Of a stretch of 64,000 bases of DNA, positions 12,478 through 30,745 are shown in pieces. This DNA comes from Candidatus Nomurabacteria bacterium (GTDB lineage: Bacteria; Patescibacteriota; Minisyncoccia; Phycocordibacterales; UBA9973), in assembly GCA_026395965.1 (NCBI GenBank), contig JAPLXS010000006.1, positions 233,165 through 297,164 of the forward strand, written 5' to 3'. The notes beneath the pieces are model-generated. The model did not search any database and had not been told where the DNA came from. It worked only from the letters and a program-made list of their open reading frames with translations. Numbering within the stretch: the stretch's first letter is position 1; every line of letters begins with the position of its first letter. Made by a program: the position numbers and the translations under genes.

Positions 12478-12634
12478 GAATTAATAATTACGAATTAGGA
12501 ATAAAAAATACCATGACAGTGTCATGGTATTTTTTATCTAGTATTATTTTTTTAATTTTTAATTATTGTTCTCTCCCCTATTCCAATTCCTAATTCCTAA
12601 TTCCTAATTCGTAATTATTAATTCTTAATTATTT
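12471..12634. repeat. Heptamer array (12471-12502), terminator hairpin (12503-12536), then inverted 8-unit heptamer array (12579-12634)
   Basis: taattaagaattaataattacgaattaggaata | aaaaaataccatgacagtgtcatggtatttttt | tattccaattcctaattcctaattcctaattcgtaattattaattcttaattattt; stop codons of jag and of the 503 aa gene lie inside the arrays. Confidence 0.7.
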
Positions 12635-14136
12635 AACCCCAACCCCCACAATGTTGAATCTTTTTTATTTGTAAAGAATAATGTTTTTTCTTGTTTGTCT
12701 AAAAATAAATTAGTTCCGTCTACTGGAGTTTCTGAAGTTGAATTAGCTATTGTTTCAGAATCTCCAGTTGTAGAATTTATTTTTATAAAAAAATCATCAA
12801 AAGAAACCAATCCTTGATACCAAGAGTCAGGATACTGATTTCCATTAATAACATTTGGAACACTACAGTAAATGGTTATATTGTCTATACTCCATACACA
12901 TTTGTCTGACAAACCATATCTATCTAGTTCTTTTGTAGTGTGTTTTTTAATATCAAAAATTGATAGTTTGGGGCCACTAGATGTAGATGTGCTAAACAAA
13001 ACAAGAGAACCATTGTGGTTTACTAAAGTGGTGAGCCCAGGTACTCCCCCAAAAACCTTTGTAGTAGTTTTAGTTGTTGTATTTAAAACAAAGATAGTGC
13101 CATTTGCAGTATAAGATGGTTTTGTTGTTAGATATATTTTTTGATTGTTATCCCATTGTGATAGCCATTCTGTAAAAGGAGAATTAAAAACTATATCTTT
13201 TTTTGTGTTTCCAAATGTTCCGACGACACCAGATGCACCGTTGTTGTTTTCTGTTATATAGAAAAATTTAGTTTTATCGATAGAAGTGCTAAAATCAGAA
13301 ATATTTTGAGGTAAAAATTCTCCAGACGGAGCACCAAGCGAAGCCATAAAACTATTTATAGATTTATCTTCTGAGAGATATCTGTAAACAAAAGTATTAC
13401 CTGTATTATCAAAAAAAGTTTCATAAATACTTGGAATTGTAGAATTTGAAATCTTCTCTTTGTTTTTTGTATCTAAAAACATTTTATATATGTGGCCGTT
13501 CATCCTCTCTACGTATCTTATAGAAGGAGCTATCTCTGTAGTTCTTATTGGTGTTGTTGCCCCACCTTGTGCTATTTTTGTAAAATATGGAGCTGTAAAA
13601 GTATCTATTTTTCCTGTAACTCCCAAGTTGTTTAATTTTTGGAAAGATTTTATTGCATCTACTGTTTTTTTATCTAAAACCCCAGTTGTTGCTAGTTGTG
13701 GTTTTAGAGAAAGTGTAGTATTTAGAAATTTTTGAATTTCAATTCTACCCGCTTTTGTATCAGGAGATATTACTACCCTAGCTGGCTCAGGAGCCTGTAC
13801 TACTTGCGTATTTGGATTAACTGCTATTGGTCTTATATCGTCCAAAAAGGTGGCACCAGCAACAGAAAAGTCTGTTATTTGGTAGAACTTATTGACTGGT
13901 GTTGTAGATGTTCCTTGGTCTTGATTTTGAACTTCAGTTGATGTTTCATTGTTTGTAATAGGTGTTGTTGCAACCTGGCTACCATTACCAAAAGGGTTAA
14001 AACTTTGATACCAAGATGATTGGGTGTTTGTAGTACTAACACTAGGATTCTTGCTAGACCAAAAGTAAAAACCAAGGATAATTATCCCTACTATTATAAA
14101 TGTTGTTATAAAAATGATTTTTGTTTTTTGTGGCAT
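12625..14136 (-). CDS. Membrane-anchored secreted protein with peptidoglycan-binding domain and beta-rich C-terminal region
   Basis: N-terminal TM, T/S/Q-rich linker, PG_binding_1-like LATTGVLDKKTVDAIKSFQKLNNLGVTGKIDTFTAPYF. Confidence 0.55.
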   Translation of the reverse strand: MPQKTKIIFITTFIIVGIIILGFYFWSSKNPSVSTTNTQSSWYQSFNPFGNGSQVATTPITNNETSTEVQNQDQGTSTTPVNKFYQITDFSVAGATFLDDIRPIAVNPNTQVVQAPEPARVVISPDTKAGRIEIQKFLNTTLSLKPQLATTGVLDKKTVDAIKSFQKLNNLGVTGKIDTFTAPYFTKIAQGGATTPIRTTEIAPSIRYVERMNGHIYKMFLDTKNKEKISNSTIPSIYETFFDNTGNTFVYRYLSEDKSINSFMASLGAPSGEFLPQNISDFSTSIDKTKFFYITENNNGASGVVGTFGNTKKDIVFNSPFTEWLSQWDNNQKIYLTTKPSYTANGTIFVLNTTTKTTTKVFGGVPGLTTLVNHNGSLVLFSTSTSSGPKLSIFDIKKHTTKELDRYGLSDKCVWSIDNITIYCSVPNVINGNQYPDSWYQGLVSFDDFFIKINSTTGDSETIANSTSETPVDGTNLFLDKQEKTLFFTNKKDSTLWGLGLNN

Positions 14137-14147
14137 ATGTTTTTAAA

Positions 14148-15392
14148 TTAATGACCAGCATTAGGTCCAGTTGACCAATGCCAATTTTCTTTGGGTAAAT
14201 TCTTGAATCCATAGTTTATCGCATTTTTTTGTAGCCAAGTAAAACATTCTTTTGTGCTGGCTACTTTTTCAAATTTAGGATTTTGATTATCCCAATTAAT
14301 CAATTTTCCGTTACATTTTAAATCAACCGCAAGACCTTGCTCATGGTTTGATGTTCCTGGTTTTGCTGTTTGGGGTTTACATGAACTAGCGGGAACTGTT
14401 AACTTTGGGGCTGGGCAGTTTTTATTTCTTAGTGCTGTTTGCTCATCAAGTGACCTATATCCCCCTCCAGATAAAGTTATACCACCTAAATTAAAAGCAT
14501 CAGCAATCATAAGTTGAAGTTTTGGAGCGTAAGCAGAACAAAATCTAAAATTAGCTGTTTTTGTTTGTACCATTCTTGTTCCACCCGGGCAGTTATCAAA
14601 ACTATTTTTAGTTGGAGCTAAAGAACCCTCGTCTGATAGTATTGGTATTTCTTCTTCTTCTATTCCTGCAGTAACCGGATCGATTTTTACCCCTCCCCCT
14701 CCTAGTAGGTCTGGGTTGATAGTGTTTAATAAAGCATAAGAACCTAGTGCTATAAGTAGTCCAAGTATTGAGTTTTTTATTCTACCTTTTGCTTCTGTTT
14801 TACCAAAAATTGATTCATTACCCATATATTGAACACCACCTATAACAATCATTATAACAGCGAGCACAGCACAGAGACCTATGGCGATATTAAATATTGA
14901 ATTAAAATAAGTACCAATATTATCTGGTGCTGTTTTCATTCCTCCTATAGGAGCGAGGAGATTATAAACTTTTTCAGAAAATGTACCTGAAGAAGTTGTT
15001 CCTGGTGTTATGGTAACAACTTGTGTCTCTGTGGGGATAACAACAGCAGGAGTAACTTGTTCTGCGTGAGTTTGACTATCTAGTATTTTATAGAAGCATC
15101 CTTTTTTTAGTTCTAGTATTTTTTCTTGTGCAGTTCCCCCGTAAATTTCTGAATTAACCATTACTTTTTTGTCGTTATTGCAAGTCTGAAAAGCAGCTAT
15201 ATTTTTTGACACATTATGAGTATCAGAATAAGGAGATGTGTAGGGCTCTGTAGCTCCTTTCAATGGTATAGTAAAATAATAAACAGTGTCTGTTATTGCG
15301 CTAACTGTTTTTATTAATGAAAAAAATATAAATAAATATATAAATATATAAAATAATTTTTTATTTTTTGTTTGAGATTTATTTTTTTTCAT
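14148..15392 (-). CDS. Membrane protein with paired hydrophobic helices and C-terminal M15 (VanY-like, LAS family) zinc peptidase domain; putative secretion-system-associated cell-wall hydrolase
   Basis: N-terminal signal/TM, two hydrophobic helices IFNIAIGLCAVLAVIMIVIGG / ILGLLIALGSYALL, Gly-rich linker, M15 motif SNHEQGLAVDL. Confidence 0.6.
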   Translation of the reverse strand: MKKNKSQTKNKKLFYIFIYLFIFFSLIKTVSAITDTVYYFTIPLKGATEPYTSPYSDTHNVSKNIAAFQTCNNDKKVMVNSEIYGGTAQEKILELKKGCFYKILDSQTHAEQVTPAVVIPTETQVVTITPGTTSSGTFSEKVYNLLAPIGGMKTAPDNIGTYFNSIFNIAIGLCAVLAVIMIVIGGVQYMGNESIFGKTEAKGRIKNSILGLLIALGSYALLNTINPDLLGGGGVKIDPVTAGIEEEEIPILSDEGSLAPTKNSFDNCPGGTRMVQTKTANFRFCSAYAPKLQLMIADAFNLGGITLSGGGYRSLDEQTALRNKNCPAPKLTVPASSCKPQTAKPGTSNHEQGLAVDLKCNGKLINWDNQNPKFEKVASTKECFTWLQKNAINYGFKNLPKENWHWSTGPNAGH

Positions 15393-15393
15393 A

Positions 15394-16425: not shown

Positions 16426-16565
16426 GAAAATTAAAGATATTGATACATATTTTGTGTAATTAATAAAATTATTTCCTCTTTACCCCAAAGGGGCACTACG
16501 AGATAAATAATTTTATTAATTACACAAAATAATACCTATAATAAATAGACGTTGGACGTCTATTT

Positions 16566-18395
16566 TTATGAATTTGTTGAAAGTAAGTCTTTCTTGGCTT
16601 TTTGAATAGCAAGTATTTGTGATGGATCTGAAGTAATGATCTGGTCCTCTGTATAAGAAGCTATTGTTTTAATAGCAACGTGTTTTAGCCCAGCAAAGAA
16701 TATACCCTCGCCTACATTTGCTTCAAGTAAGAGGTATTTTTCTTCATCTGTGAGGTTGAAAGTCTTTTGTAATACATCTATGGTTGCTGGGGATTGTTTC
16801 AAGAGTAGTTGAATAGATGAGTTTGTAACAATAGGTATACCATAAGGACTTTTCATAAAATCTCCTACGTCCTGAGTGATAGTAGCAAGACCTAGATAGT
16901 ATTTACGTCCTCTTTTTGCAATAGAATACAAGAAAGAAGCAGTATCTTCTGATTTCATCATCCACCAAGCCTCATCAACTACGAGCAATCTCTTTTTGAT
17001 ATTTTTACGGATAGAATTCCAAATATAGTGAGTGATTATATACATTGCGACAGGCTTAAGCTCATCCTCCATGTCTCTAACAGAAAAAACAATAAATTTT
17101 CTATTTATATCTACGTTTGAAGGCTGGTTTAAGAATGAAGCCCAAGAACCATGAGTATATTTTACCAATCTCTGCATAAGAGACTCACTTCCCTCCATAC
17201 CAGAAAGAACTACTTCAAAGTCTGAGAGCATTGGAGGTTCAATATTCATGAAATCTGAATTGGTTGTTATGTCTTTCAAGGCATAAGTTTCAGTAATAGC
17301 AGAGTCAACAAGTGAATCTTCTTCTGGTGTAAGTCCACCAAGCATTATTCTAAATAGACCAACAAGATTTATGGTATTTGCACGGAGTACATCAGCACCA
17401 GTTTCATCTCCTGTAGGTATTGGTAAGTCAAAAGGGTTTATGTGGTGGTCTGAAGAAAGAGCAATGTTGAAATATCTACCTCCCACTGCTTCTGCTAGGT
17501 ATTCGTATTCGCGTTCAGGGTCTATAACAATAACTTCTGTATCAAACATCAAAGTACGAATAATCTCTAGTTTTGTGGCATAAGATTTACCTGCACCAGC
17601 TGTAGCAAAGGTAATAGAGTTGTAGTTTGGTAAAGAAAATCTATCAAAAAGTATAAGACTAGAGTTATGACGGTTTACCCCATATAGTATTCCCCTATCT
17701 TCTGTTAGGTCAAAGGATACAAATGGGAAAATACTTGAAAGAGGTTCAGTATTTAGTTTTTGGTGTATACCTAAAATATCTGTACCTAATGGTATGACAC
17801 TTTTGAAGCCCTCATTTTGTTGAAATAATGCAGGTTTAAGATAAATAAGCTTTGAATCTAGAAGAGATTTTATCTCGTTCTCAATTTTAAATAAATCATT
17901 GTCATTCTCGGCATATACAGTGATATAAAGCCCGACATCAAACATTTTCTCTTGAGCTTGCATTAGATTGTTTCTCAAATCCTCTAGGTCTCTGTATGCT
18001 GTATCTAGCATCGGGTCACGAACGAGACCTTTTGATTCACGAATAGAAATCTGACTTTGAACCTCAGCTACTTTTTTCTGGAAAGATCTCATTATTTCTG
18101 CTGTATCTATAGGATGAATAAAAATAGAAATATCATAAACCTTGTCCAGGTTTATGATTGGAGAAAACCAGTTGTCACTGAGGTATCTTGGGTATGATAT
18201 TACGAAAAATGTTCTAGCTATTTTATCTCCAAGATTTAAAGATTTTGGTGTTATTTGAAGAGCAGAAGGAGCAATAATATCTTGTAGCTCAAGAGTTGCA
18301 GCTTTGTAGATTTCACTAGGCAAAACAGGCATAACCATACTTCGGTTATTTTTAAGATCGTCCCCTTTTCCAAATAATGATGAAAATATTGACAT
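16566..18395 (-). CDS. VirB4/PrgJ-type type IV secretion ATPase, central + ATPase portion (apparent C-terminal fragment of a split gene)
   Basis: VirB4 mid-region ARTFFVISYPRYL, Walker A ATAGAGKSYATK, Walker B RLLVVDEAWWMM. Confidence 0.8.
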   Translation of the reverse strand: MSIFSSLFGKGDDLKNNRSMVMPVLPSEIYKAATLELQDIIAPSALQITPKSLNLGDKIARTFFVISYPRYLSDNWFSPIINLDKVYDISIFIHPIDTAEIMRSFQKKVAEVQSQISIRESKGLVRDPMLDTAYRDLEDLRNNLMQAQEKMFDVGLYITVYAENDNDLFKIENEIKSLLDSKLIYLKPALFQQNEGFKSVIPLGTDILGIHQKLNTEPLSSIFPFVSFDLTEDRGILYGVNRHNSSLILFDRFSLPNYNSITFATAGAGKSYATKLEIIRTLMFDTEVIVIDPEREYEYLAEAVGGRYFNIALSSDHHINPFDLPIPTGDETGADVLRANTINLVGLFRIMLGGLTPEEDSLVDSAITETYALKDITTNSDFMNIEPPMLSDFEVVLSGMEGSESLMQRLVKYTHGSWASFLNQPSNVDINRKFIVFSVRDMEDELKPVAMYIITHYIWNSIRKNIKKRLLVVDEAWWMMKSEDTASFLYSIAKRGRKYYLGLATITQDVGDFMKSPYGIPIVTNSSIQLLLKQSPATIDVLQKTFNLTDEEKYLLLEANVGEGIFFAGLKHVAIKTIASYTEDQIITSDPSQILAIQKAKKDLLSTNS

Positions 18396-18672
18396 CCCGT
18401 TAGAGATAGGAAGCGCCTAATCTGTTTTTAAGATAACGCTTACCCATTCCCGATTTTAAATATAATTCTCTCGACCGAGCTTTTTTCTCGCTCTTACATG
18501 CTTCATAATAAATAATTTCAAACGGACCTCTTCCTTTTGTATAAGTAGACAAACCATTGTTGTGTTGCAGAAGGCGTTTCCGTAAATCTTTTGTACTTCC
18601 TGTGTATATATTACCATCTTTTTTACTTTTTAATATATAAGTGTAATAAAACATATATAATCTCTAACGGGA
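18395..18672 (-). other. Inverted-repeat leader element, site 2 (TCCCGTTAGAGAT ... ATCTCTAACGGGA) with GIY-YIG gene nested between the arms
   Basis: 13-bp perfect IR; GIY-YIG ATG 5 nt inside the upstream arm, its TAA stop inside the downstream arm, which directly abuts the VirB4 ATPase ORF ATG. Confidence 0.6.
18400..18654 (-). CDS. Small GIY-YIG nuclease family protein (UPF0213/YhbQ-like)
   Basis: FYYTYILKSKKDGNIYTGSTKDLRKRLLQHNNG...YTKGRGPFEIIYYE, 84 aa. Confidence 0.8.
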   Translation of the reverse strand: MFYYTYILKSKKDGNIYTGSTKDLRKRLLQHNNGLSTYTKGRGPFEIIYYEACKSEKKARSRELYLKSGMGKRYLKNRLGASYL

Positions 18673-18683
18673 CCAGTATAATA

Positions 18684-19337
18684 TTATTGTAGTTTCATTC
18701 CTTGGCTAGTGTCGCCAGGGTTAAATGTTTTATAAAAAAGCTCGACTACTTGGTCTGTTTTAAGTTGAGAAGTTCTGATGCCTACTCTACCAAGACCACT
18801 GATAATAACACCTACTCTCTGGTCGAGCTGTGTACGCTTCTCCTCAAATGAAGCCATATCCATTGCCTTTTTTGTATCTTCTATTTGTTTTTTTGGAGCA
18901 CCGCTTCCCATAAAACTATCCATCATTTTATTGCTAGACTTTATAACATTTGCACTGTAAGGTACAACAATAAAAAAAGTTTTTGTCATTATATTTACTT
19001 CGTCAGTAAATGATTTTATGAAGTCTATGTATTCTTTGGTTTGTATTTTTAAAAGAGGCTCTGTTTGCTCTTTTAATCTTTCTTCTAGGGTCATTAGGTA
19101 TGGGCGTATGTCCAATCTGCGTGATTGCATACATATTTGAGTTGGAAAATCTAAACCGTTGAGAAAATTTTGGAACTCACTTATGATAGCTGTTTGTTCG
19201 TCTGCTGATTTAAGAGATAAGTTTAGAGAAGATGCTAGTAGTATAGAACGAAGACCACCATCCTTTAGTATGATGATGCCATTTCTTACTTCTTTAATTG
19301 GTACAAACTCCTGAGAGCTTTTTGCATCTATTGCCAT
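18684..19337 (-). CDS. VirB4/PrgJ N-terminal domain protein (apparent N-terminal fragment of split VirB4)
   Basis: Gram-positive VirB4 N-terminal pattern QEFVPI..NGIIILKDG...LNLSL...EQTAIISEFQNFLNGLD..TQI. Confidence 0.55.
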   Translation of the reverse strand: MAIDAKSSQEFVPIKEVRNGIIILKDGGLRSILLASSLNLSLKSADEQTAIISEFQNFLNGLDFPTQICMQSRRLDIRPYLMTLEERLKEQTEPLLKIQTKEYIDFIKSFTDEVNIMTKTFFIVVPYSANVIKSSNKMMDSFMGSGAPKKQIEDTKKAMDMASFEEKRTQLDQRVGVIISGLGRVGIRTSQLKTDQVVELFYKTFNPGDTSQGMKLQ

Positions 19338-19340
19338 ATA

Positions 19341-19446
19341 AAATAATTACGAATTAATAATTACGAATTTATAACTAATAACATTGTACCATATTACAAA
19401 TAATTAAGAATTATTAACCTTACTCCCTAATTCCTAATTATTAATT
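19341..19446. repeat. Heptamer arrays (19341-19370 and 19401-19419 forward; 19425-19446 reverse) in the 5' leader of the VirB4-N ORF
   Basis: aaataattacgaattaataattacgaattt ... taattaagaattattaacc ... ccctaattcctaattattaattt. Confidence 0.6.
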
Positions 19447-19455
19447 TATAATTAT

Positions 19456-19875: not shown

Positions 19876-19883
19876 ATAATGGG

Positions 19884-19915
19884 TAATTACGAATTAGGAA
19901 TTAATAATTACGAAT
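19884..19915 (+). repeat. Heptamer array (forward) left of the four-helix-bundle gene
   Basis: taattacgaattaggaattaataattacgaat. Confidence 0.6.
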
Positions 19916-19921
19916 GAACGA

Positions 19922-20272
19922 TTAAGATCTGGATGTTTTTATAATCGAACCAAGTATTTTTAATAATTCTTCACATTCACACATAAGTGTACCAGATTGT
20001 TCCTTGTTTAGAAAACCACTATCTGATAAAAGCTGTAACCAATAAAGTGTTTCCCTTGCCTCTTTGTATGAAATACTCATCTTTGAGATGAAATCATTTT
20101 TTGATTGTGCCCCTATTGCCTCCTCTATATTTGCCCCAATAGATGTTCCGGATCGAATTAATTGTTTTGAAAGAATAAATTCTTTTTTGTCTTTAGTTAA
20201 ATCCTGATATATTTTTATTATATTAAGACTGAAGGCATAACTCTTACTTCTTACGATATTGTCCGACTTCAT
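19922..20272 (-). CDS. Four-helix-bundle protein (TIGR02436-like; family commonly found in 23S rRNA intervening sequences)
   Basis: QLIRSGTSIGANIEEA...KMSISYKEARETLYWLQLL signature, 116 aa. Confidence 0.75.
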   Translation of the reverse strand: MKSDNIVRSKSYAFSLNIIKIYQDLTKDKKEFILSKQLIRSGTSIGANIEEAIGAQSKNDFISKMSISYKEARETLYWLQLLSDSGFLNKEQSGTLMCECEELLKILGSIIKTSRS

Positions 20273-20285
20273 TTTTTTTGATTTA

Positions 20286-20319: not shown

Positions 20320-21441
20320 CTAAAACTCTTCCCTATAAGGGTCATGTGATTTTGGTGAAGAAACAGTATTTGAAGGTAAAGGAGACGGAGTAGATATTTT
20401 GGGAATTGAATAGTCTGAAACAGTATGATCACTCATAGTTATACTTTTTAATTTGTCCCCCATAGATATGGCTTGTGTATTTACAATAGGAGACTTGGGA
20501 ATAGGAATACTAGGTTTTACTTCCCATGCATCTTTTAGCTCGTCTTTTATTTTAACAGGAGTTTCTATTTTTGTAGTTATATGTTCTATGTAATCAAGCC
20601 TATCTTCTTTTTTTATTATACTAGCACTTTGTGCTACGCTTTCTGTTGGTTTTTTAATTTCTATAACTTCTTCTATTTTGGGTATTGTTGTTTGTACTGC
20701 TGGGAGCTCTATACTTGATTTTGCATAAGGAGGAACAGGAACCTTGTCCTCGCTCTCTACTTTCATATCACTACCGTTTATTTTTTCTTGCTCATTCTTT
20801 TTCATAACCTCTCTAATGTTAATGAAAATATTTTCATTAACATCTTTTATTAGGTCTGAAATTTCTTCTTTTGGTAGTGGTATTTTAGAAATTATTTCAC
20901 CCTCGTATTTATCTGAATGTATAACATTTTGTATTACTTTTACTGTTATATCTTCTATAATACCCATCTGCTCGATGTTTAATTTGTATTTCTTTGATAT
21001 CTCGTAAAGCTTATTTTTCCAGTCAGAGCCTGCTATCGCCTCCTGAATATCTTTTGGCATAGTAATAAAACGAGGGTCTAAAATCAAAGGTTTTTTTTCA
21101 AAAACTGTTTTGGCTGTTCTTTCTAGTTTTTTCTTTAACTCCTCGGCAATTTTTTTGAAAATTAATCTATCGAGTTCACCGAGTAGGATGTTTGTATCAT
21201 CATTAGTTATTCTCATTCTGGATTGAATTTCTTTTTGATATTCTTCTGGTTTTAAAATTCCGCATAGAAGTAATTCAGTTTCTGTTGAAAGATCATCAAG
21301 TTGCTCGGGGCTGTATTTTTTATTCATCTCTAGAATAACCAATTTCCAATTTACACTATCAATAGCCTCCCGACTTTCTTTTGAAAGGAGTGCTCTTGCT
21401 TCTTCTATTTGAATTTTAAGTAAATCAACTTTGGTATCCAT
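20320..21441 (-). CDS. Hypothetical coiled-coil protein with Pro-rich C-terminus (secretion-locus component)
   Basis: 373 aa, charged helical repeats, no enzymatic motif. Confidence 0.5.
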   Translation of the reverse strand: MDTKVDLLKIQIEEARALLSKESREAIDSVNWKLVILEMNKKYSPEQLDDLSTETELLLCGILKPEEYQKEIQSRMRITNDDTNILLGELDRLIFKKIAEELKKKLERTAKTVFEKKPLILDPRFITMPKDIQEAIAGSDWKNKLYEISKKYKLNIEQMGIIEDITVKVIQNVIHSDKYEGEIISKIPLPKEEISDLIKDVNENIFINIREVMKKNEQEKINGSDMKVESEDKVPVPPYAKSSIELPAVQTTIPKIEEVIEIKKPTESVAQSASIIKKEDRLDYIEHITTKIETPVKIKDELKDAWEVKPSIPIPKSPIVNTQAISMGDKLKSITMSDHTVSDYSIPKISTPSPLPSNTVSSPKSHDPYREEF

Positions 21442-21536: not shown

Positions 21537-21941
21537 TTATTTTATAAAATAGGAATAATCTCCACCAGAAATAATAAAATTAATTGTTTGGTCCCATGGC
21601 GTTTTTGTAAACTCTATATTATTCTTTATGTCGTTACTAATTATAGATAATATTGGATCAAAAACATTTTTATATATTTCAGCTATTATTTTTTTAGTTA
21701 TTTCTTCGCTTAAACCAACTTCATTTTGTAAAATATAATCAAAATCTTCTATATCAGTAAGACCAGAAAGAATTAAACCAATTTCAATTTGAATTCTTTC
21801 GTTTTCTTCATCTATAAGACCAAACTGATTGCTAATCTCGTCTGTTTTTTTAATCCAATCTACAGAGTTAATAGCAACCTGTTTTATCTTGGGCAGCTTT
21901 ATTATTTCATCTAATATTTTTTGTTTTGTTATTTCATTCAT
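21537..21941 (-). CDS. Hypothetical small acidic protein (secretion-locus component)
   Basis: 134 aa ORF in operon context. Confidence 0.45.
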   Translation of the reverse strand: MNEITKQKILDEIIKLPKIKQVAINSVDWIKKTDEISNQFGLIDEENERIQIEIGLILSGLTDIEDFDYILQNEVGLSEEITKKIIAEIYKNVFDPILSIISNDIKNNIEFTKTPWDQTINFIISGGDYSYFIK

Positions 21942-21946: not shown

Positions 21947-24628
21947 TTAATGGTGTCCTCCTCCATGACTGTCATGACCAGAGCTTGCAGGTTTTGGGAC
22001 GGCAGCTGGCTTAGGTGCAGGTGCTACTGGAGCAGAATGTCCTCCCCCACCTCCATGACTTTCAGAACTCTTTGTTTGTATACCAAGTATCATATTGTCT
22101 CTTGCTTCAGAAGTACCTCTTACTGACCTGCCCGACATAGAGAAAATATTTGCGATTTTATTTGTTGTACTTCCAATATAATCTGATTGGTTTTTTGCAA
22201 CTTTATTTTTTACATCTTCTATCTTGTGCGTAATATTTTTAATATCTGAACCAAAAGAAGCTATTGATTTACCTGTACCGTTTCTTTCTAGTGCCAAGGC
22301 AGCATTAGCTTCATTTGTAGCTTTCAGAAGATCAGTTTTTGCTTTTTGTAGATCTTGCTCAGATTTATCTTTTGATTCTCTAAATTTAAGATCCGCTACA
22401 TATTTAGCTTCTTTTATTTTAGTTTCTTTTTCTGGGGTCATTCCTCCTGGGGAAGATTCTGCATCAGATTTCATTTTAGCAATTCTCTCCATATCTAGAT
22501 TGTATTCAGCTGTTGGAGCACCTTCAATCTTATTAACCTTAGCTTCTGCCTCAGTTTTTGCTTTTACTAGAGATTCAATATATGTCTTCCCTATCTTTCC
22601 GTTATCTGTAGCATATTCATCTGATCCATCTGGATTCTTTTTCCCGGTTTTACCACCCAGGCTGATTGAAGTTTTTTCTGCTTTTAATTCTTTTATTTCA
22701 TTAGAAAGTCTCATTTTTTCTGCTGGATCTGCAGTTTCAGCCATATCTTGTTTGGCTTTAGTTAACTTGTCTTCAATTTCATGTAGTTTATGTGAATTAT
22801 TATTTTCAACAAGTTTTTTACCAACTTCAGTCTTTCTTTTTTCAACTTCATCACCTCTTGTCGCCATAGTTTTTAGTTCTGCTAGTCTTGTTGTTCTTTT
22901 GGCTGCTTTGTCTTCTATTGCTTTCTTGTATCCACCTTCTTTTGCTTTTCCAAAATCTACTCCAAGATTTTTGCCTGTAGCAGCCCCTGCTTTTGTATTA
23001 CGAACATCAAAGCTTGCTTTATTTGCACCACTACCAATATCTATAAGTTTTGCCGCCATTCTACCTTTTAGTCCACCATCTGCTACTTTTTTAGCTAAGT
23101 ATGAATTGTTTTCAATATTACCTCCAAGTCTTCCAACGCTTGCCCTCATAGCAAGTGCGGCTCCACCAGTCATAGCACCAAGAGCGATTCCTCCTACAGC
23201 ACCACCAGCTTTAGATAGAGACTCTCCTATTTGACCAGACATACTTACTGCTACATCTTTTGCTTTCATAAGAAGGATCATTATAAATGCAAACGGAACT
23301 ATTATTTTTAAGACAAAAGTTAAACCACTTGCATTTAATCCACCTGGTGTATTCATTGCATCCATAACACCAAGTCCTTTACTTAGAAACCCGACAATCA
23401 AATACATAAAAAAAGCAAACACCGGAGCTACAAAAGCCATTGAAAGTAGGTCTGGCCACCACTTTTTCCAACCAATCATTTTTATATCTTGAAGCTGTGG
23501 AACTATATAACTAAAAAATGCGAGAGGAGCTAGTATCATAGAGAGCCAAAGCATTACCACCCTGCCTATGAAAATAAGAGCAGATGATGCAAATGCTATG
23601 GTTCCTACTATGTTGATCGCAGTAGAGAGAAAAACAACAATAATAAAACCACCGATAGATATACCGCCACTATTATCTGTCTCACTTGTATCAAGCCCTT
23701 TTGATTTAATTTTTCCTACTTCAGCGGAACTTGTTATAATAGCAACCGGATTAACTTTTGAAACTATTGCTTCAGATAATTTAATTTCTCCAAGATCACC
23801 CCGTTCACTAACAACAGGAAGAGGGTTACCACTCTCATCTTTTTGAACTGTGCCTGTGATTATTGTTTTATCATTATAAAAAACTCGCGCTAAAATATTT
23901 GAAGTATCTATAATAACTTGGGTTGTAAACAAGCTGAAGTTTATAAGTAGTCCAATGATAACTACATTGATAATCATTTCTTTTGTTTTAACACTATGTA
24001 ATTCCAAGATTGTTCCAAAAGCGATATATAGTAAAACAAATATGAAAAACATATTACAAAAGTCTCTTACTATTCCCCACCCACTAAGTACAAATTCTGA
24101 ACGATAAGAAACATCGCTAAGAGAATACATAAAAGTAAAGTCTAATGCTCTACCAGAAAGTCCAAAAACAAATGATGTAGGTACAAAAAATATATAGTAT
24201 AAAAGTTGAGCACCGCAACCTTTCAACCCGTCTCCAGAAGTAATCCCACAAGGCGGAAGTCCACCAGAGTTTTCTTGTTGTGTTGGTGTTACCCCTGTTC
24301 CAGATAATGCACCTACAGTAGTAGTTTGAGCATTAGCAACTGCTTCTTTACACTGACTATAAGAAATACCTGTCTGTGAACTACTTGCTGCTTCATCAGC
24401 TGTCCTATCTGCATTACACTCATTTAGTATTTTTGGAGTACTTGTAGATAATACTTCAGATACACCTGCAGCAGAAAATGATATTTTATTATAACTGTAC
24501 AAAATAGCAGCTTCTACTTTGATACTTTGTATTTTTGGAGTATTTTTTATTCCAAGACCCAAAGTAAATGGCGCAAATAATTGCACAAAAACTGAAAGTA
24601 TTAGAATGTATGGTAAGAATTTCTTCAC
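21947..24628 (-). CDS. VirB6/TrbL-like (TcpH/PrgH-type) polytopic membrane protein with long C-terminal coiled-coil and Gly/His/Pro-rich tail
   Basis: Signal peptide, at least 6 TM helices in residues 150-460, glycine-zipper AGGAVGGIALGAMTGGAALA, K/E-rich coiled coil, tail GGGGGHSAPVAPAPKPAAVPKPASSGHDSHGGGHH. Confidence 0.55.
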   Translation of the reverse strand: MKKFLPYILILSVFVQLFAPFTLGLGIKNTPKIQSIKVEAAILYSYNKISFSAAGVSEVLSTSTPKILNECNADRTADEAASSSQTGISYSQCKEAVANAQTTTVGALSGTGVTPTQQENSGGLPPCGITSGDGLKGCGAQLLYYIFFVPTSFVFGLSGRALDFTFMYSLSDVSYRSEFVLSGWGIVRDFCNMFFIFVLLYIAFGTILELHSVKTKEMIINVVIIGLLINFSLFTTQVIIDTSNILARVFYNDKTIITGTVQKDESGNPLPVVSERGDLGEIKLSEAIVSKVNPVAIITSSAEVGKIKSKGLDTSETDNSGGISIGGFIIVVFLSTAINIVGTIAFASSALIFIGRVVMLWLSMILAPLAFFSYIVPQLQDIKMIGWKKWWPDLLSMAFVAPVFAFFMYLIVGFLSKGLGVMDAMNTPGGLNASGLTFVLKIIVPFAFIMILLMKAKDVAVSMSGQIGESLSKAGGAVGGIALGAMTGGAALAMRASVGRLGGNIENNSYLAKKVADGGLKGRMAAKLIDIGSGANKASFDVRNTKAGAATGKNLGVDFGKAKEGGYKKAIEDKAAKRTTRLAELKTMATRGDEVEKRKTEVGKKLVENNNSHKLHEIEDKLTKAKQDMAETADPAEKMRLSNEIKELKAEKTSISLGGKTGKKNPDGSDEYATDNGKIGKTYIESLVKAKTEAEAKVNKIEGAPTAEYNLDMERIAKMKSDAESSPGGMTPEKETKIKEAKYVADLKFRESKDKSEQDLQKAKTDLLKATNEANAALALERNGTGKSIASFGSDIKNITHKIEDVKNKVAKNQSDYIGSTTNKIANIFSMSGRSVRGTSEARDNMILGIQTKSSESHGGGGGHSAPVAPAPKPAAVPKPASSGHDSHGGGHH

Positions 24629-24692
24629 ACTGATTATTATAACAATTTTTCAGAATAAAATCTCGATATTGAACTTTTATTTGATAAAATAA

Positions 24693-26819
24693 CTACCAAA
24701 TATTTAATACTTGTTCGTAGTCTGCTGCTGTTCCATCTGGGTAATCACTACAGTTTGTTCCTCCTGTGTTGGAGGAAGTAGCTGAAAGGTAATTATAATG
24801 AGTGTATGTCGAATTGATAGTATAGTCACTCATAAAATATATATCTCTTGGTTCAGGTTCAAGTGATTTATTTATCAACGGAACAATGGGAACATCTAAG
24901 GTTAGAGGGTCATTGTGGCATTTAAATATATATTTTTGTGTTGGGTTTTGTACGTAGTAAGGACCTCTTTCAGTAGGTTTGTACCAAGGGTTACCAAATC
25001 TTGCAGTTGGTCCTGTGTAGTTTGGATTTACTGTGCCAGCTTTGTTTGTGGTTTGTGCATAACACTGGTTTATAAGGTCATCTATGTTTTCAACATAAGG
25101 TTTTAGAGTATCTATCTCCCTATATATCATATCTATATCTGTTTGTGTTTTTAATGTTGGGGCTATTATATAGTACTTTCTTAGAAGTTGTGCTAGTTTT
25201 GCTTTTTCTAAATCAGTAAATGTCAAAGGGTTCTGCTCTATAAGCAAACACTTGTTTTCTGTAGGGTCGTTTGGAGCTGAGTTTATTTCAGAGTCATGTG
25301 TTGCTACGTATGAGTTATTTATATCACCACCTGCATGACAATTCGGGTCTAGTGTATCTATTTTGCCGTCGATGTCGTTGTCTAAGCCATCGTTACACTG
25401 ATAAACAACTGATGGGTAAGTTACTTCAGAATCATGTGTATCTATGTAAGAGTTATTTATATCACCACCCGTATGACAACTTGGGTCAAGTGCATCTGTG
25501 AGACCATCGGCATCATTGTCTAATCCGTCGGAACATTGTTTCTTTTCACCATCAGATGGTAATGAATTTGATACAGTAAATGTAGTCCAAGGACCACAAT
25601 TGTTGTCTTCACTTGATTCTATTATAAGACCTGCATCACTGCTAGATTTTTTGTCGGCACAAGCTCTTATATAGTAAGTTCCCGATTGAGGAAAAGTATA
25701 TAAAACTTTTGCAGTATTGTTTGTACCTGCTGATAGTACTGGTAGATTTACATTTAATTCAACATTCCCATTTGTACTTATATTGTTGCTTGTTGGGGCT
25801 GTTTTTGAAATTGTAAAAAAGGTAGAGAAACCAGTTACAGTGGAACCCTTGCCATCATTTCTAATGATAGATGTAAGAGTTACGGGTGTGTTTATAAGAG
25901 CAGTAGCTGGAGTAGTAAAACCAGATATTAAATCTGGACTCATACTCACAGGTGAGCTTGATTCTGAAAAATGATCTGGAGTGTATGCTTTAGTCAAGTC
26001 TCCTCCTGTATGACAATTTGGGTCGAGTGTATCTACAAGACCATCGGTATCGTTGTCTAGCCCGTCGGAACATTGTTTTATATTTCCTCCAACATTAACA
26101 AATACACTACCACTTACATATCCTAAGTCCCCCATACATGTGACTATATAAGACTTATTTGACGAAAGCGTACCAGTTTTAAATGATCCACTTGTACCTG
26201 TTCCGTTGCCGAAACCCGACTGACATGAAGTAGTATTTGTTGAAGTCCAACTCACAGTAGAAGACGCTCCCGATGCAATAGCTTGAGGACTAGCAGAAAC
26301 GGCAACTGTTGGCAAAAGATTGCTACCATCAGTTACACTCACAACTACGTTGTCTACCCCATCACCAAACTCTCCTGTACAGATTATTGTATAAGACTTG
26401 CTGTCAGACAAAGCTCCTGTTTCAAATGTTCCTGTTGCAGGAAGTACTTTGTCATCGCCGGCATTACAAGAAGTAGTATTGATTGAAGTCCAACTAATAG
26501 TCGATGATTTACCAGGTGCAACTTCTGAAGGGCTAGCTGTAGCCATAACTGTGGGTATGCCTGTACCGTCTACAAAGTTTGTACAAAGTGGAGGGTTGAC
26601 TGCTTTGTTGGTACACTCTGGTGTTTTATCTGCTACCAAGGGTACGTTTTTTTTGAATAAACTATTTATAAGCGGTGAAAATAGTTTTCCAACACTTGTA
26701 GATGTTTTTACACCAAAAGAATCTCTGTTGTTATAGATTAAATACCCGGATACCAAAAGTAATATAACAATTATTATTGTTATTATTAGAGCTTTACTTT
26801 TTTGGGGTGTATTTTCCAT
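24693..26819 (-). CDS. Secreted/anchored protein with tandem Ig-like domains and three Cys-flanked DGLDND-DG Ca-binding-like modules
   Basis: N-terminal TM; repeated about 55 aa units (SSTISWTSINTTSC / SSTVSWTSTNTTSC); motif C-x-DGLDND-x-DGL-x-D-x-LDP-x-CH three times. Confidence 0.55.
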   Translation of the reverse strand: MENTPQKSKALIITIIIVILLLVSGYLIYNNRDSFGVKTSTSVGKLFSPLINSLFKKNVPLVADKTPECTNKAVNPPLCTNFVDGTGIPTVMATASPSEVAPGKSSTISWTSINTTSCNAGDDKVLPATGTFETGALSDSKSYTIICTGEFGDGVDNVVVSVTDGSNLLPTVAVSASPQAIASGASSTVSWTSTNTTSCQSGFGNGTGTSGSFKTGTLSSNKSYIVTCMGDLGYVSGSVFVNVGGNIKQCSDGLDNDTDGLVDTLDPNCHTGGDLTKAYTPDHFSESSSPVSMSPDLISGFTTPATALINTPVTLTSIIRNDGKGSTVTGFSTFFTISKTAPTSNNISTNGNVELNVNLPVLSAGTNNTAKVLYTFPQSGTYYIRACADKKSSSDAGLIIESSEDNNCGPWTTFTVSNSLPSDGEKKQCSDGLDNDADGLTDALDPSCHTGGDINNSYIDTHDSEVTYPSVVYQCNDGLDNDIDGKIDTLDPNCHAGGDINNSYVATHDSEINSAPNDPTENKCLLIEQNPLTFTDLEKAKLAQLLRKYYIIAPTLKTQTDIDMIYREIDTLKPYVENIDDLINQCYAQTTNKAGTVNPNYTGPTARFGNPWYKPTERGPYYVQNPTQKYIFKCHNDPLTLDVPIVPLINKSLEPEPRDIYFMSDYTINSTYTHYNYLSATSSNTGGTNCSDYPDGTAADYEQVLNIW

Positions 26820-26842
26820 ATATTTACTTAAATAATTATTAT

Positions 26843-29815
26843 TTATTTACAATCAGGGTCTTGTGAGTCTACTAGTCCATCCATATCGTTGTCTAACCCG
26901 TCTGTACATCTTAATCCGTCTTCATGTGAACCGATAATATCTGAAGGGTCATAATAAAGTATATCTTCTTCGGCAAAACATTCTTCGTATTTTGTTTTGT
27001 ATTGAGCAAAGGTTAAGATATTACCTGCACTAGTTGCATTTTTTATACAATTTTTGTAGTCAATTAAACACTGAGCATTATTTGTATCATTTTCACATTC
27101 TTTTCTTGTCGCAACACAAGCATTTATTGCAAGTTGATTTAGGTTATTTAATTGTGACAACAATTGAGCATCACGACGATCTTGAGCAGCTTTTATGATT
27201 ATACTTACTTCTTTCTTGATACCATTTAGTTTCGAAGTGTTGAGACTAGCTGTACTTGCATCATTTGCATAGTTTGTTTTTTTTGTGTTTACATCTTCAT
27301 TTTTTCTAACAATGTTTTTTGTCATATTGTATCCTTCTTCTACCATTGGAACATATGCAGTGTTTTTTATTAGAGTTGATATTTTCTCACTTTCGTTAAA
27401 CTCATGTTGCATTGTTTCATAGGTATCTTTAAAAGCTTTAGCATATTTTTCATAAGCCATTGTTATGAGTTTGGGCACTCTTGTTTTTACAGAATTTGTA
27501 ACTACATTCATTGCATTGATTTCACGGCTGCCATCATTATCACCATAAGCTATTGCATAATGATTAGCAACTTCTGTCATTGGTAGTGATGTAAGTATTG
27601 ATTTCCATAGTGCACTATTTTTATTTTCTGCACGAATAGCTATATTTTCAGTTGGACTTTTGTCTGGATTAATCGGGAATATACTATTGAAATAATTTTC
27701 CCAAGATTCTTTTCCTTCTTTGTCCGCAGTCCAGTATGAAAATGTTAAACCGCCACTATTATCAAATAGATGTCCTTCTATTGATTGAGCATATTTTATA
27801 AAATAACTAGCTGTTTGACCTGTATTTGCTTTAAATGATGGGTTTGGTCCAGGGATACAATATTCAAGCTCACCAAGTTTTGGCATTACACTTGGTAGTA
27901 TTTGCAGTATTTCTTTTGTTGCGACTATGTAGTCTTTTTGTATTTGTATTACACCTCTTTTATCTATTGGACTTGTCTGGTTTTTACAAACACCTTTTAT
28001 TGTCCCTCCACACTTCCAGTTTTGCCATTCTTTGCCATTCCAAAAAGCCCTGTCACCTTTTTCCCATCCTGTGTAACCGTTATTGAATAACTTGGTATTT
28101 CCATCTGTTGTTACGTTGTAGTAATAATTTGAAGGATAATATCTTTGATTTGCTTCGTCATAGGGAGCTAAATTTATATATAAGTTTGGCTCATTTGTAT
28201 AAGCATTCCAGTTGCCTAGTGATATGGTAGGTGTATGTATATATGTGTTTCCAAGGTCACGAGTTAGATCAAATTGACTATTTGTGTATCCACTATAACC
28301 TGAGTTGTTTGCCCCAGTGTTGTCACCCAAGTAATCATTTGAGGTGTTTGACCCGTATCCACCAACACCAATATTTTCGTTGTTGTATGTATATGTATTA
28401 TCTGAAAGACTAGCTAGTCCGTTTGATTTAAATTTATCTAAAAGATTTGAAAACAGACTACTAAGCGAGTCATTTATAGTCTTTGCTACTTCTAATTGAC
28501 GATCTGGAGAGTTTATATAACTTGAAAGTTTGTCTTTTATGATACTTCCAGGTGTAACTACATTCCACTTTGTACAAACGTCGTAGTTTGGATTAGCGCT
28601 ACTTTTATTGGGACTAAATACATACTGCTCATTTAATGAACTTGCATAATTATTTGCAAAAGAAGGTGCTTCTGCTGGACCAATATCAGATTTAATTTTT
28701 GGCTTACCTGGACCATCATATATCTGCCATTCAGCACATGTTTTTTGACTCAAAAATCCGTTGTTTTGAGCGACTTCATCTTTTGTTTCAGATGTTTGTT
28801 GAGCTATTCTATCTGCTAGTTTTTGGCTAGCCAGCATATTGAATCCAAGAGGATTGTTTGACTCTTTTTGAGTTAGTGCCATATATCCATCCCACCCGCC
28901 TGATGAAAAATCATTTGCAAAATTGTTGTTTGCTCTTTGTGATCTTTGAAGTGCTGTTTCTGGTGTACCTGTGTCTACATAGGAATTTTTGTCTGTTATA
29001 AATGCTGCTAAATCAGAAGTTAGTGAATCGAGGAAGTTGGCCGCACCGTACTTTAGAGCACCTGCATTGTAACCGGTTACGATAGATCTAGAAAAATCCT
29101 TACCATATGGAAATGCCCCATTTGAAAACCTTTGAACCCCTTGGTCATATACATTTTTTTCTATACCATTTGTAAACTTTGTAACACTTTGGACATACAT
29201 GGGGTTTCCATTTAAACCATGGTTGACCCAGTTTACAGTCTGGTGGGTCATAGAAGCGAGTTGGTTTTGTGCTAGTCTTGTTGCTAGTCCGTTGAAACAA
29301 TCTTCTCTTTTTTTATTTGCTTCATCTATTGAGATTGAGTTATCTATTTTTGTTTCAAGTGATTTGTTTATAGTTTTGCCTACTCGTGTACAGTCTATAG
29401 AGTCAACAAGTGGAGCAGCAGCATCACTTACGTAAGGTATCCATCCAGCAACGTTGGTAAGAACATCTTTTCCTGCCTGACAAACAGTGGATTGTGCACC
29501 TGCAACAGTTTCCGACCCCATAAAATCATCCAAAAGTTTGTTTGCTTGGTTTTTTATAAAATCTGTCATTTGTGTTGAAACTTTATCAACAATACCAGTA
29601 CAACCAACAACACCCATCAGGGTGTCTGTATTTAGTATATTTTCAGAATTTACTTGATATGGATTATCTCCACTATTTGGATTGTCCCAATTTAGACCGC
29701 CGTCACCAGTTGCACTAGCTACATAAGGAAAAGAAAATTGAGAAAAAGAAATAACTATAGAAATTATAAAAAAAATTGATATTGTCTTGAATGTAAATAT
29801 ATTTTTTCTATCCAT
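26843..29815 (-). CDS. Giant secreted protein (990 aa) ending in the same Cys-flanked DGLDND-DG module
   Basis: Signal peptide; Asn/Tyr/Gly-rich; C-terminal LRCTDGLDNDMDGLVDSQDPDCK. Confidence 0.55.
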   Translation of the reverse strand: MDRKNIFTFKTISIFFIISIVISFSQFSFPYVASATGDGGLNWDNPNSGDNPYQVNSENILNTDTLMGVVGCTGIVDKVSTQMTDFIKNQANKLLDDFMGSETVAGAQSTVCQAGKDVLTNVAGWIPYVSDAAAPLVDSIDCTRVGKTINKSLETKIDNSISIDEANKKREDCFNGLATRLAQNQLASMTHQTVNWVNHGLNGNPMYVQSVTKFTNGIEKNVYDQGVQRFSNGAFPYGKDFSRSIVTGYNAGALKYGAANFLDSLTSDLAAFITDKNSYVDTGTPETALQRSQRANNNFANDFSSGGWDGYMALTQKESNNPLGFNMLASQKLADRIAQQTSETKDEVAQNNGFLSQKTCAEWQIYDGPGKPKIKSDIGPAEAPSFANNYASSLNEQYVFSPNKSSANPNYDVCTKWNVVTPGSIIKDKLSSYINSPDRQLEVAKTINDSLSSLFSNLLDKFKSNGLASLSDNTYTYNNENIGVGGYGSNTSNDYLGDNTGANNSGYSGYTNSQFDLTRDLGNTYIHTPTISLGNWNAYTNEPNLYINLAPYDEANQRYYPSNYYYNVTTDGNTKLFNNGYTGWEKGDRAFWNGKEWQNWKCGGTIKGVCKNQTSPIDKRGVIQIQKDYIVATKEILQILPSVMPKLGELEYCIPGPNPSFKANTGQTASYFIKYAQSIEGHLFDNSGGLTFSYWTADKEGKESWENYFNSIFPINPDKSPTENIAIRAENKNSALWKSILTSLPMTEVANHYAIAYGDNDGSREINAMNVVTNSVKTRVPKLITMAYEKYAKAFKDTYETMQHEFNESEKISTLIKNTAYVPMVEEGYNMTKNIVRKNEDVNTKKTNYANDASTASLNTSKLNGIKKEVSIIIKAAQDRRDAQLLSQLNNLNQLAINACVATRKECENDTNNAQCLIDYKNCIKNATSAGNILTFAQYKTKYEECFAEEDILYYDPSDIIGSHEDGLRCTDGLDNDMDGLVDSQDPDCK

Positions 29816-29836
29816 GATTTTTATTGTATCATATTT

Positions 29837-30745
29837 TTAATTACTTTTACTAGCAATATCGTTTAAATCAGTACCTATTGCATCGGTGTATTTTTTATAA
29901 TTAAGAAGAGACCTCATACCTACTATAGGGTCAGTTATTATTTGAGTTAATCCTTCTATGGATTGTGCTATTTTTTCGTAATCATTTGAAAGATTTAAAT
30001 GCGCGAGAGCATAAGAGCTGGGAACAGGTACTTTTACAAGCTCTTCACTAAAAGCTCTATATGCGAGAGCTACTGTTTTGGCAGAATACAATGCTTGAGG
30101 GTCATTGTTTGCTACTCCTTGAGATAAAAGCAATAGCTCACTTCCTAGGTCATCGTTTTTGTATTTTTTTAAAATAGCTGTTAGCGAAACTATGTAGTCC
30201 ATGTGTGTTTTACTTGAATCCGCTTTAATATTGAGCATATTTTGTGTGTATGCGCTTTCTAGGGGTATTGGTACTATTTGTTGCCCTATGGATTCAGAGA
30301 CTGATTTTATGGATTCTTCGTCTAGCTGACCTGTTTGTTGTAGAGACATAATAGTAGCAAAAAACTGTTTTGAGAGAATCTCATTTTCAGTTATTGAAAT
30401 TGTGTCATCTGAGCTAGTTATGATACCTTTTTGTTCCAAGGATTTTTTCTTTGCTAGTATAAAATCTTTATTTTCAGGGCCATTTTTATATGGGTCAAGT
30501 CCCCATAAGTACTCTTCCCAGTCCGCGATGCCGTTTTTGTTGCCATCTTTTTCGTTTATACTACCAATAGTCATTTTGATAGGCTCACCTTTGTATTTTC
30601 CACCGGTTTTATTTTTGAATAAAGATATCGCACCTTTTACTCCAAAATAAATAGCGATAAGAGCAAGTATTATAAGAATATTGAATATAAATTTTTTACT
30701 TGGAAGATATTTTTTATATTTGTTCATAGATATTGAGTCTTGCAA
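29837..30745 (-). CDS. Membrane-anchored hypothetical protein
   Basis: 302 aa, single N-terminal TM. Confidence 0.45.
   Translation of the reverse strand: MQDSISMNKYKKYLPSKKFIFNILIILALIAIYFGVKGAISLFKNKTGGKYKGEPIKMTIGSINEKDGNKNGIADWEEYLWGLDPYKNGPENKDFILAKKKSLEQKGIITSSDDTISITENEILSKQFFATIMSLQQTGQLDEESIKSVSESIGQQIVPIPLESAYTQNMLNIKADSSKTHMDYIVSLTAILKKYKNDDLGSELLLLSQGVANNDPQALYSAKTVALAYRAFSEELVKVPVPSSYALAHLNLSNDYEKIAQSIEGLTQIITDPIVGMRSLLNYKKYTDAIGTDLNDIASKSN

Follow-up and report, generated by a model that had tools for sequence, protein, structure and literature searches.

A 64,000-nucleotide (nt) stretch of Candidatus Nomurabacteria DNA (contig JAPLXS010000006.1), referred to here as the window, is dense in coding sequence and has a guanine plus cytosine (GC) content of 32%. 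Its minus strand holds, at positions 12625-30745, the gene cluster studied here, whose products match components of a Gram-positive-type, MPF-FATA-like type IV secretion system (T4SS). The cluster consists of fourteen consecutive open reading frames (ORFs) separated by short spacers of 1-140 nt (Table 1). All ORFs listed in an earlier reading of this DNA, called here the original prediction, are present, and its assignment of a Gram-positive-type T4SS to the cluster is borne out by VirB4, PrgI, T4SS_pilin, VanY and PG_binding_1 matches above curated cut-offs. The source organism is Candidatus Nomurabacteria, class Paceibacteria; the 990-amino-acid (aa) protein has exactly the sequence of NTU81_01980 from a Candidatus Nomurabacteria metagenome-assembled genome (MAG).

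Related loci were drawn from a genome collection scanned at one genome per species. The set comprises the 80 best of at least 596 VirB4 relatives, picked by VirB4 similarity, each from a different species-representative MAG, and synteny was followed by tblastn of the window proteins against these 80 loci. The 80 best relatives show 75-94% VirB4 identity and all belong to Patescibacteria MAGs, labelled Paceibacteria, Nomurabacteria or Parcubacteria and in some cases 'uncultured Candidatus Saccharibacteria'. Individual loci are designated by L numbers where they have to be told apart.

Table 1. Features of the gene cluster, in order of position in the window (domain limits in residues).
Feature	Position	Strand	Family or basis of assignment
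503-aa membrane-anchored protein with PG_binding_1 domain (130-181) and conserved C-terminal domain; last gene of the cluster	12625-14136	minus	PF01471
414-aa fusion: signal/transmembrane (TM) segment, VirB2-like pilin hairpin (157-216), VanY/M15 peptidase (288-398)	14148-15392	minus	PF18895, PF02557
328-343-aa protein with one N-terminal TM/signal segment	15394-16425	minus	Conserved, no family
VirB4 ATPase core, 609 aa	16566-18395	minus	NF045971, PF19044
276-bp mobile insertion with 84-aa GIY-YIG ORF (18400-18654); not part of the T4SS	18396-18671	minus	PF01541
217-aa TrsD-like protein corresponding to the N-terminal domain of a single-chain VirB4	18684-19337	minus	NF045971, NF045975, NF041427 (all below cut-offs); PF26593
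PrgI/VirB3-like two-TM protein, 139 aa	19456-19875	minus	PF12666; two hydrophobic segments
116-aa four-helix-bundle '23S rRNA intervening sequence protein' (IVP); variable insertion, not part of the T4SS	19922-20272	minus	PF05635
373-aa soluble protein: ~100-aa repeat in two copies, conserved DPYRE motif at the C terminus	20320-21441	minus	No significant family
134-aa soluble protein with a single copy of the repeat of the 373-aa protein	21537-21941	minus	Weak paralogy
893-aa polytopic protein: putative VirB6-like fold (~130-480), long charged helical Gly/His-rich C-terminal tail	21947-24628	minus	Fold search
708-aa surface protein: N-terminal anchor, CARDB domain, three CxDGxDNDxDGxxDxxDPxC repeats	24693-26819	minus	PF07705
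990-aa cysteine-containing surface protein: N-terminal anchor, one C-terminal acidic double-disulfide repeat	26843-29815	minus	NF033662
302-aa membrane-anchored protein: conserved D-x-DGDG-x-x-DWEE calcium-binding-like motif and helical domain; first gene of the cluster	29837-30745	minus	Alignment

Components of the secretion system

The ATPase core matches NF045971, the NCBIfam model of VirB4-like conjugal transfer ATPases of the CD1110 family, at 363.5 bits against a cut-off of 325 and over profile positions 183-734 of 752. It also matches Pfam P-loop_TraG at 84.8 bits, as well as AAA_10, and its Walker A (ATAGAGKS) and Walker B (LLVVDE) motifs are intact in translation. Two further NCBIfam matches lie under their cut-offs, one to NF045975 (VirB4_plasma, 255 bits) and a weak one, far under, to CedB (E 1.4e-6). 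Examined for FtsK/HerA likeness, the protein passes the VirB4 model, whereas its match to HerA-type DUF87 is marginal (24.8 bits). The TrsD-like protein covers positions 2-134 of NF045971 and 102-238 of NF045975 and matches the TrsD model NF041427 with E 1.4e-6, all under the cut-offs; it also carries a precomputed TraC-like annotation (PF26593). Of the 752 positions in the single-chain VirB4 model, the TrsD-like protein thus accounts for 2-134 and the ATPase core for 183-734.

The region 16566-19337 had originally been read as a split VirB4. The VirB4 identity stands, but the disruption does not, the region being a TrsD-like/VirB4 pair with a GIY-YIG insert between the two genes. The TrsD-like gene (~215 aa) and virB4 (~612 aa) are adjacent, separate ORFs in all of the 79 loci that hold both (79/79), usually with a gap of 1-100 nt (for example TAA-T-ATG in L002, L004 and L010). 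A TrsD homologue likewise adjoins virB4 in most Patescibacteria (PMC12102498). Since the two ORFs are separate in every such locus and the published survey agrees, the two-gene layout is ancestral and virB4 is not broken. A group I intron or intein behind the 'split' gene was considered and rejected in view of the differing reading frames of the two ORFs, their separation in all relatives and the small size of the insert (276 bp). The PrgI/VirB3-like protein is as predicted, matching PF12666 at 39.7 bits against a cut-off of 27.

The 414-aa protein had been described as a membrane-anchored M15 peptidase. It does contain a VanY domain (42.8 bits), but a T4SS_pilin domain in front of it had been overlooked; this scores 34.3 bits against a cut-off of 26.6, and the pilin-like model NF045849 matches at 25.5 bits, under its cut-off. 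Among 25 syntenic homologues the pilin domain is kept in 22, and the catalytic domain varies: NlpC/P60 occurs five times, VanY three times, Peptidase_M15_4 and Amidase_5 twice each, and Amidase_2, YkuD, SLT_2 and SLT_4 once each. This swapping of hydrolase domains between related species amounts to modular shuffling and is reminiscent of polymorphic effectors. When the pilin segment by itself was searched against a large protein database, all proteins retrieved were stand-alone pilins of 100-200 aa; fused and unfused forms thus both occur. The fusion protein is probably a wall-remodelling component analogous to VirB1. Its interchangeable, pilin-borne hydrolases may be aimed at the wall of a host rather than at the bacterium's own, in which case they would make the T4SS a wall-breaching device for feeding or attachment. 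The peptidoglycan-binding protein encoded next to it, correctly named by the original prediction, has one N-terminal hydrophobic segment, matches PG_binding_1 at 35.4 bits and has a syntenic homologue in 67 loci; its profile retrieved only TolB from the PDB, at a non-significant E of 0.11.

The 893-aa protein displays about seven hydrophobic segments after a signal-like N terminus. Fold searches by two methods both rank TrwI/VirB6 first, with modest significance, and sequence profiles from Pfam, NCBIfam and the PDB give no support. A precomputed PF19590 tag on five of its homologues was not reproduced by direct hmmscan.

Six further conserved proteins have no assigned function, and four of them (the 302-, 343-, 708- and 990-aa proteins) are membrane-anchored with large extracellular parts. 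Pfam and NCBIfam returned nothing usable, even at lax thresholds, for the 302-, 343-, 373-, 134-, 990- and 893-aa proteins. The 343-aa protein has a tblastn homologue in 76 of the 80 loci (median identity 34%), encoded directly downstream of virB4 in most, and has no sequence match in Pfam, NCBIfam or the PDB; the public gene call begins at an internal ATG and yields 328 aa. The 302-aa protein, whose homologue stands beside ksgA in 38 loci, belongs to no family and has no PDB match. The 708-aa protein (PF07705, 35.9 bits) is variable in its presence, being detected in 15 of the 80 loci. Homologues of the 990-aa protein are found in 47 loci and among 170 database proteins, all unnamed. This protein may be an adhesin or belong to the extracellular portion of the machine; its NF033662 match of 32 bits is under the cut-off, and its AlphaFold model is too poor for use (pLDDT 57, pTM 0.30) and gave no Foldseek match. 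Both the 708- and the 990-aa proteins carry acidic double-disulfide repeats. The two soluble proteins may serve the T4SS as accessory factors in the cytoplasm. The 373-aa protein has a homologue in 53 loci and no match in the PDB, and the 134-aa protein, detected in 17 loci, is a weak paralogue of its repeat (E ~0.001).

Gene order and chromosomal setting

The order ksgA - 302 - 990 - (708) - VirB6-like - 134/373 - prgI - trsD-like - virB4 - 343 - pilin-hydrolase - PG-binding - jag - yidC - rnpA - dnaA - dnaN recurs over the 80 loci, with varying completeness, so that twelve genes travel together, well beyond the five recognisable ones. In the window the cluster is flanked by dnaN, dnaA, rpmH, rnpA, yidC and jag on one side and by ksgA and uvrD/pcrA on the other, and related genomes share these housekeeping flanks wherever their contigs reach far enough. 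Four DnaA-box-like sites lie within the dnaA-dnaN spacer, in keeping with the predicted origin-proximal setting. Counts of DnaA boxes over the whole window show no enrichment, only the local cluster at 8666-8821 being suggestive. The GC content of the cluster (0.336) is close to that of the rest of the window (0.320). Because gene order is largely kept across the 80 loci and the GC content matches that of the flanks, the locus is part of the core genome, inherited vertically beside the replication origin, and not an integrative element.

Among the loci in which both proteins are complete, VirB4 (16566-18395) shows higher identity than DnaA (8828-10192) in 52 of 52, with medians of 79% and 65%, respectively. 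Such conservation, in loci picked by VirB4 similarity, is unusual for a secretion ATPase.

As originally predicted, no relaxase or coupling protein is encoded in the window: a scan of every ORF of at least 100 aa across the 64 kb found no relaxase, MOB, VirD4/TcpA/type IV coupling protein (T4CP) or TraG-type coupling domain. The remaining ORFs of that size are housekeeping genes or unannotated; three of them (60599-62035, 62042-62578 and 62769-63695) were additionally run against NCBIfam. No relaxase, T4CP or integrase adjoins the cluster, the sole integrase or recombinase of the window being XerC/D-like and encoded about 12.5 kb away, at 43302-44240.

Insertions and other features of the window

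The apparent break in virB4 is a secondary insertion of a small GIY-YIG element into the trsD-virB4 spacer. The 276-bp insert is flanked by the inverted repeats CCCGTTAGAGA and TCTCTAACGGG, its 3' end abuts the virB4 ATG, and its ORF matches PF01541 at 67 bits. The same site is empty in seven related loci (L059, L002, L003, L004, L006, L009 and L010). Within the window, the 9-mer CCCGTTAGA occurs six times against 0.14 expected, in three inverted pairs. There are three copies of the element, the one in the T4SS cluster and two without an ORF, at 10193-10309 (117 bp) and 42584-42702 (119 bp); each ends exactly at the ATG of a gene, namely virB4, dnaA and an NYN-domain gene, respectively.

A metagenome scan with the 84-aa protein returned at least 482 relatives. 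Members of the family were found in the window and in L020, L008, L029, L033, L054, L068 and L082-L161, and all the fetched DNA together holds 74 distinct insertions, 58 of ORF size and 16 miniature. Their boundaries read (T)CCCGTTAGAG.../...CTCTAACGGG(A). Full copies measure 272-283 bp and contain the 84-aa GIY-YIG ORF as their sole gene, with its stop codon inside the right repeat; miniature copies measure 63-119 bp and contain no ORF. The repeats fold into a stable stem (z ~-4.2). An ATG is abutted by 55 of the 74 insertions, and an exact 5-nt direct duplication (such as ATGAA, ATGGA or ATGAG) accompanies 38 of the 74, other insertions showing duplications of 6-7 nt or not containing ATG. 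The 56 ATG-abutting copies with enough flanking sequence precede 53 different N-termini. A target duplication is absent from the GIY-YIG copy of the window itself.

The 276-bp insert may belong, as an autonomous copy, to an undescribed family of tiny mobile elements, characterized by 13-14-bp terminal inverted repeats, a 5-6-bp target duplication, a preference for start codons (ATGAA, ATGGA) and ORF-less derivatives. If so, GIY-YIG would act as a transposition nuclease in bacteria. A genuine transposon class of this kind, a minimal start-codon-targeting element of about 276 bp in very compact genomes, would outweigh the locus itself in importance. A literature search, incomplete in its coverage, found no description of such a GIY-YIG element. 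This family and the swapping of hydrolases on the pilin fusion are the only parts of the present analysis for which no description was found in the literature. That at least one of the two, the element family or a set of pilin-borne hydrolases directed at the host wall, is both real and previously undescribed is a distinct possibility that falls somewhat short of probable.

One of the ORF-less copies lies in front of dnaA. Where this site is empty (L059, L002, L010, L004, L006 and L003), a TATAAT box stands 6-7 nt upstream of the ATG and there is no Shine-Dalgarno sequence, an arrangement suggesting, on sequence grounds, that the dnaA mRNA is leaderless or nearly so. In the window (10310-10330), the TATAAT box is split from the dnaA start codon by the 117-bp element.

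The second insertion in the cluster, the IVP gene (PF05635, 100 bits), has AT-rich imperfect inverted repeats on either side. It was detected by tblastn in 5 of the 80 loci, at the same position in L059, L030 and L054 and in the trsD-virB4 spacer in L050. More divergent IVP-like ORFs lie inside the trsD-virB4 spacers of L057 and L076, that of L057 being enclosed by a near-perfect pair of 25-nt inverted repeats. Similar AT-rich repeat words without an ORF occur in the prgI-trsD spacer of the window (19338-19455) and in the trsD-virB4 spacer of L022. With the ORF lying in a loop closed by a long stem, the architecture is similar to that of rRNA intervening sequences.

An alternative genetic code was considered for the window and rejected, since under table 11 all genes are uninterrupted and end in TAA or TAG. 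The 23 genes between 3421 and 34015 end with TAA (18) or TAG (5), never with TGA, and TGA is absent in frame too; its use appears to be avoided, though the standard code fits. An Rfam scan returned four tRNAs only and no family covering the inverted-repeat elements. A scan for promoters and terminators was uninformative, with promoter-like sites fewer than in shuffled sequence and terminator-like sites mainly intragenic. On the plus strand, 59302-63695 holds four successive ORFs without a family (439, 478, 178 and 308 aa), the first of which ends in a weak LPXTG-like wall-anchor motif (E 0.005). An isolated minus-strand gene at 56421-56897 encodes a 158-aa protein whose PaaX central/Cas2-like domain matches PF20803 with E 1.8e-15 and CRISPR_Cas2 weakly; the window contains neither a CRISPR array nor further cas genes.

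Interpretation and comparison with known systems

Taken together, these data make it very probable that the locus is a chromosomal Patescibacteria T4SS, derived from monoderm MPF-FATA conjugation machinery by loss of the DNA-processing module. Profile matches, synteny and the literature agree with the original prediction of a small-genome, possibly episymbiotic bacterium with a probably non-conjugative T4SS. As to the role of the system, host-directed transport is moderately likely, by analogy with Southlakia epibionticum, whose growth on its host depends on the corresponding system. The putative VirB6-fold protein, PrgI and the two-chain VirB4 would form a membrane translocon. The pilin-anchored peptidase and the peptidoglycan-binding protein could open, remodel and span the cell wall, and the membrane-anchored 302-, 343-, 708- and 990-aa proteins could form or decorate the extracellular part. 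VirB4 would power assembly of a pilus-like or channel structure reaching the host cell. By analogy with S. epibionticum, the outcome would be contact-dependent exchange with the host, either protein export or import of molecules, rather than DNA conjugation.

Several points weigh against this interpretation. No substrate, effector or signal is identifiable in the locus, and the role is assigned by analogy. VirD4-like genes occur far from virB4 in most Patescibacteria (PMC12102498), and the genome may contain a coupling protein gene outside the window. The pilin exists in the window only as part of the fusion. A VirB8-like component (PrgL, TcpC, TraM) was not detected, profiles from six family alignments having no significant match among all PDB sequences. 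The degree of VirB4 conservation is inflated, since the 80 loci were selected on VirB4 similarity.

A machine mainly devoted to adhesion, in which VirB4 assembles a VirB2-type filament or surface complex for host attachment and no cargo is moved, is an unlikely alternative, even though the pilin domain persists in 22 of 25 syntenic genes, the cluster encodes large surface proteins with calcium-binding repeats, no coupling ATPase was found in the window and a review has noted the potential of these bacteria to elaborate conjugative pili (PMC12857230). An enzyme of about 200 residues after the pilin segment and a domain of about 120 residues before it are hard to fit into a VirB2-type helical filament, and Paceibacteria already have type IV pili for adhesion (the window encodes a T2SSE ATPase). 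The present data do not separate adhesion from transport.

DNA uptake had been proposed by the original prediction next to cell-cell interaction, and it is the less likely of the two. A competence-type machine like Helicobacter ComB or the archaeal Ced system would bring in DNA as a nucleotide source or for recombination, and we judge it quite improbable here. As with ComB, a relaxase and coupling protein were not found in the window. Genes for a ComM-like Mg-chelatase ATPase (35991-37562), RuvB, RuvC, UvrD/PcrA and a type IV pilus ATPase (3-1118) are neighbours of the cluster, but they are ordinary origin-proximal housekeeping genes, conserved whatever their function; the ComM-like gene is 5 kb off, and ComEC, ComF and the Ced membrane components were not found in the window. 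The weak CedB match of VirB4 covers the shared P-loop region only. In the class ABY1 the T4SS adjoins comF, recG and radA (PMC12102498). In Saccharibacteria, however, competence needs ComEC and type IV pili; deletion of comEC ends transformation and leaves viability unaffected, with the T4SS still essential, an argument against assigning the essential role to DNA uptake (PMC12857230).

A decaying or domesticated integrative conjugative element (ICE), non-functional after loss of its relaxase and insertional inactivation of virB4, would account for the homology of components to Firmicutes and Mycoplasma conjugative elements (NF045971, NF045975, NF045849), the two small selfish genes (GIY-YIG and IVP) within the cluster and the tyrosine recombinase 12.5 kb away, but either an ICE or such a remnant is very unlikely given the synteny, with the same housekeeping flanks recurring in related species-level genomes, the GC content no different from the flanks, the higher conservation of VirB4 than of DnaA and the intact Walker motifs, besides which all genes are intact ORFs, the separate virB4 and trsD-like genes leave nothing broken and the recombinase is XerC/D-like and not adjacent.

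The reading as a chromosomal Patescibacteria T4SS places the locus in a type that is already published (PMC12102498, PMC10633639, PMC12857230), and no new principle is involved. The practical value of the present check lies in its corrections: virB4 is no pseudogene, the peptidase is fused to a pilin, and what seemed to interrupt the ATPase gene is a mobile element. Patescibacteria T4SSs are the first shown to be essential for growth of their owner and are an active topic, to which the window contributes a clean Paceibacteria example for comparative or structural work.

With the Firmicutes MPF-FATA systems CTn2 (CD1110-family VirB4), pCF10 (PrgH/I/J/K/L) and pGO1 (TrsD/TrsE), the window shares the VirB4 and PrgI families, whose models it passes. 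As in pGO1, a TrsD-like gene lies upstream of the ATPase, and as in PrgK and CwlT the wall hydrolase is a membrane-anchored multidomain protein. In contrast to those plasmid- or ICE-borne systems, the window locus is part of the core chromosome, has no relaxase, T4CP (PcfC/VirD4), oriT, adhesin PrgB or detectable VirB8-like PrgL, and includes a VirB2-like pilin domain, which Gram-positive systems lack. The Mycoplasma ICE is similar in that a wall-poor, small-genome lineage combines a VirB2-like protein with a monoderm T4SS. Its VirB4 (Mbov_0397) and pilin-like (Mbov_0395) models are both matched by the window, at 255 and 25.5 bits and below their cut-offs, but these Mycoplasma ICEs are mobile and carry a DDE transposase.

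Closer still are the systems of other Patescibacteria. A survey of 3,035 genomes found VirB4 in 2,417, mostly as one clade nested in MPF-FATA, with TrsD, VirB3/PrgI, VirB6 and VirB2-like pilins encoded near virB4 and almost no relaxases; in Paceibacteria and Microgenomatia these loci lie near dnaA, dnaN, rnpA, ksgA and rpmH (Quinonero-Coronel et al. 2025, PMC12102498). The window agrees in its MPF-FATA-type VirB4, separate TrsD-like protein, PrgI/VirB3, VirB2-like pilin, lack of a detected relaxase and the same gene vicinity. A candidate counterpart of the VirB6 encoded near virB4 is the 893-aa protein, for which fold searches rank TrwI/VirB6 first with modest significance. No essential difference separates the window from the surveyed systems. 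The survey makes no mention of pilin-hydrolase fusions with a swapped catalytic domain, of the six further syntenic genes or of the GIY-YIG and IVP insertions. In S. epibionticum ML1, the T4SS genes SEML1_0006-0019 were found by Tn-seq (transposon sequencing) to be essential for growth on the host, the one case in which such a requirement is known, and the coupling protein and relaxase were noted as missing from the cluster (Wang et al. 2023, PMC10633639); a 2025 review gives the same reading of Patescibacteria T4SSs (PMC12857230). Like the window locus, that system is chromosomal and Gram-positive-like, with pilin and peptidoglycan hydrolase genes downstream of virB4, and neither a coupling protein nor a relaxase can be recognised in its cluster. 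Its low locus-tag numbers point to a site near the chromosome start. It differs in belonging to the class Saccharimonadia and in having six stand-alone VirB2-like pilins, as against the single pilin-hydrolase fusion of the window; essentiality, which was shown there, is for the window locus a supposition drawn from this likeness.

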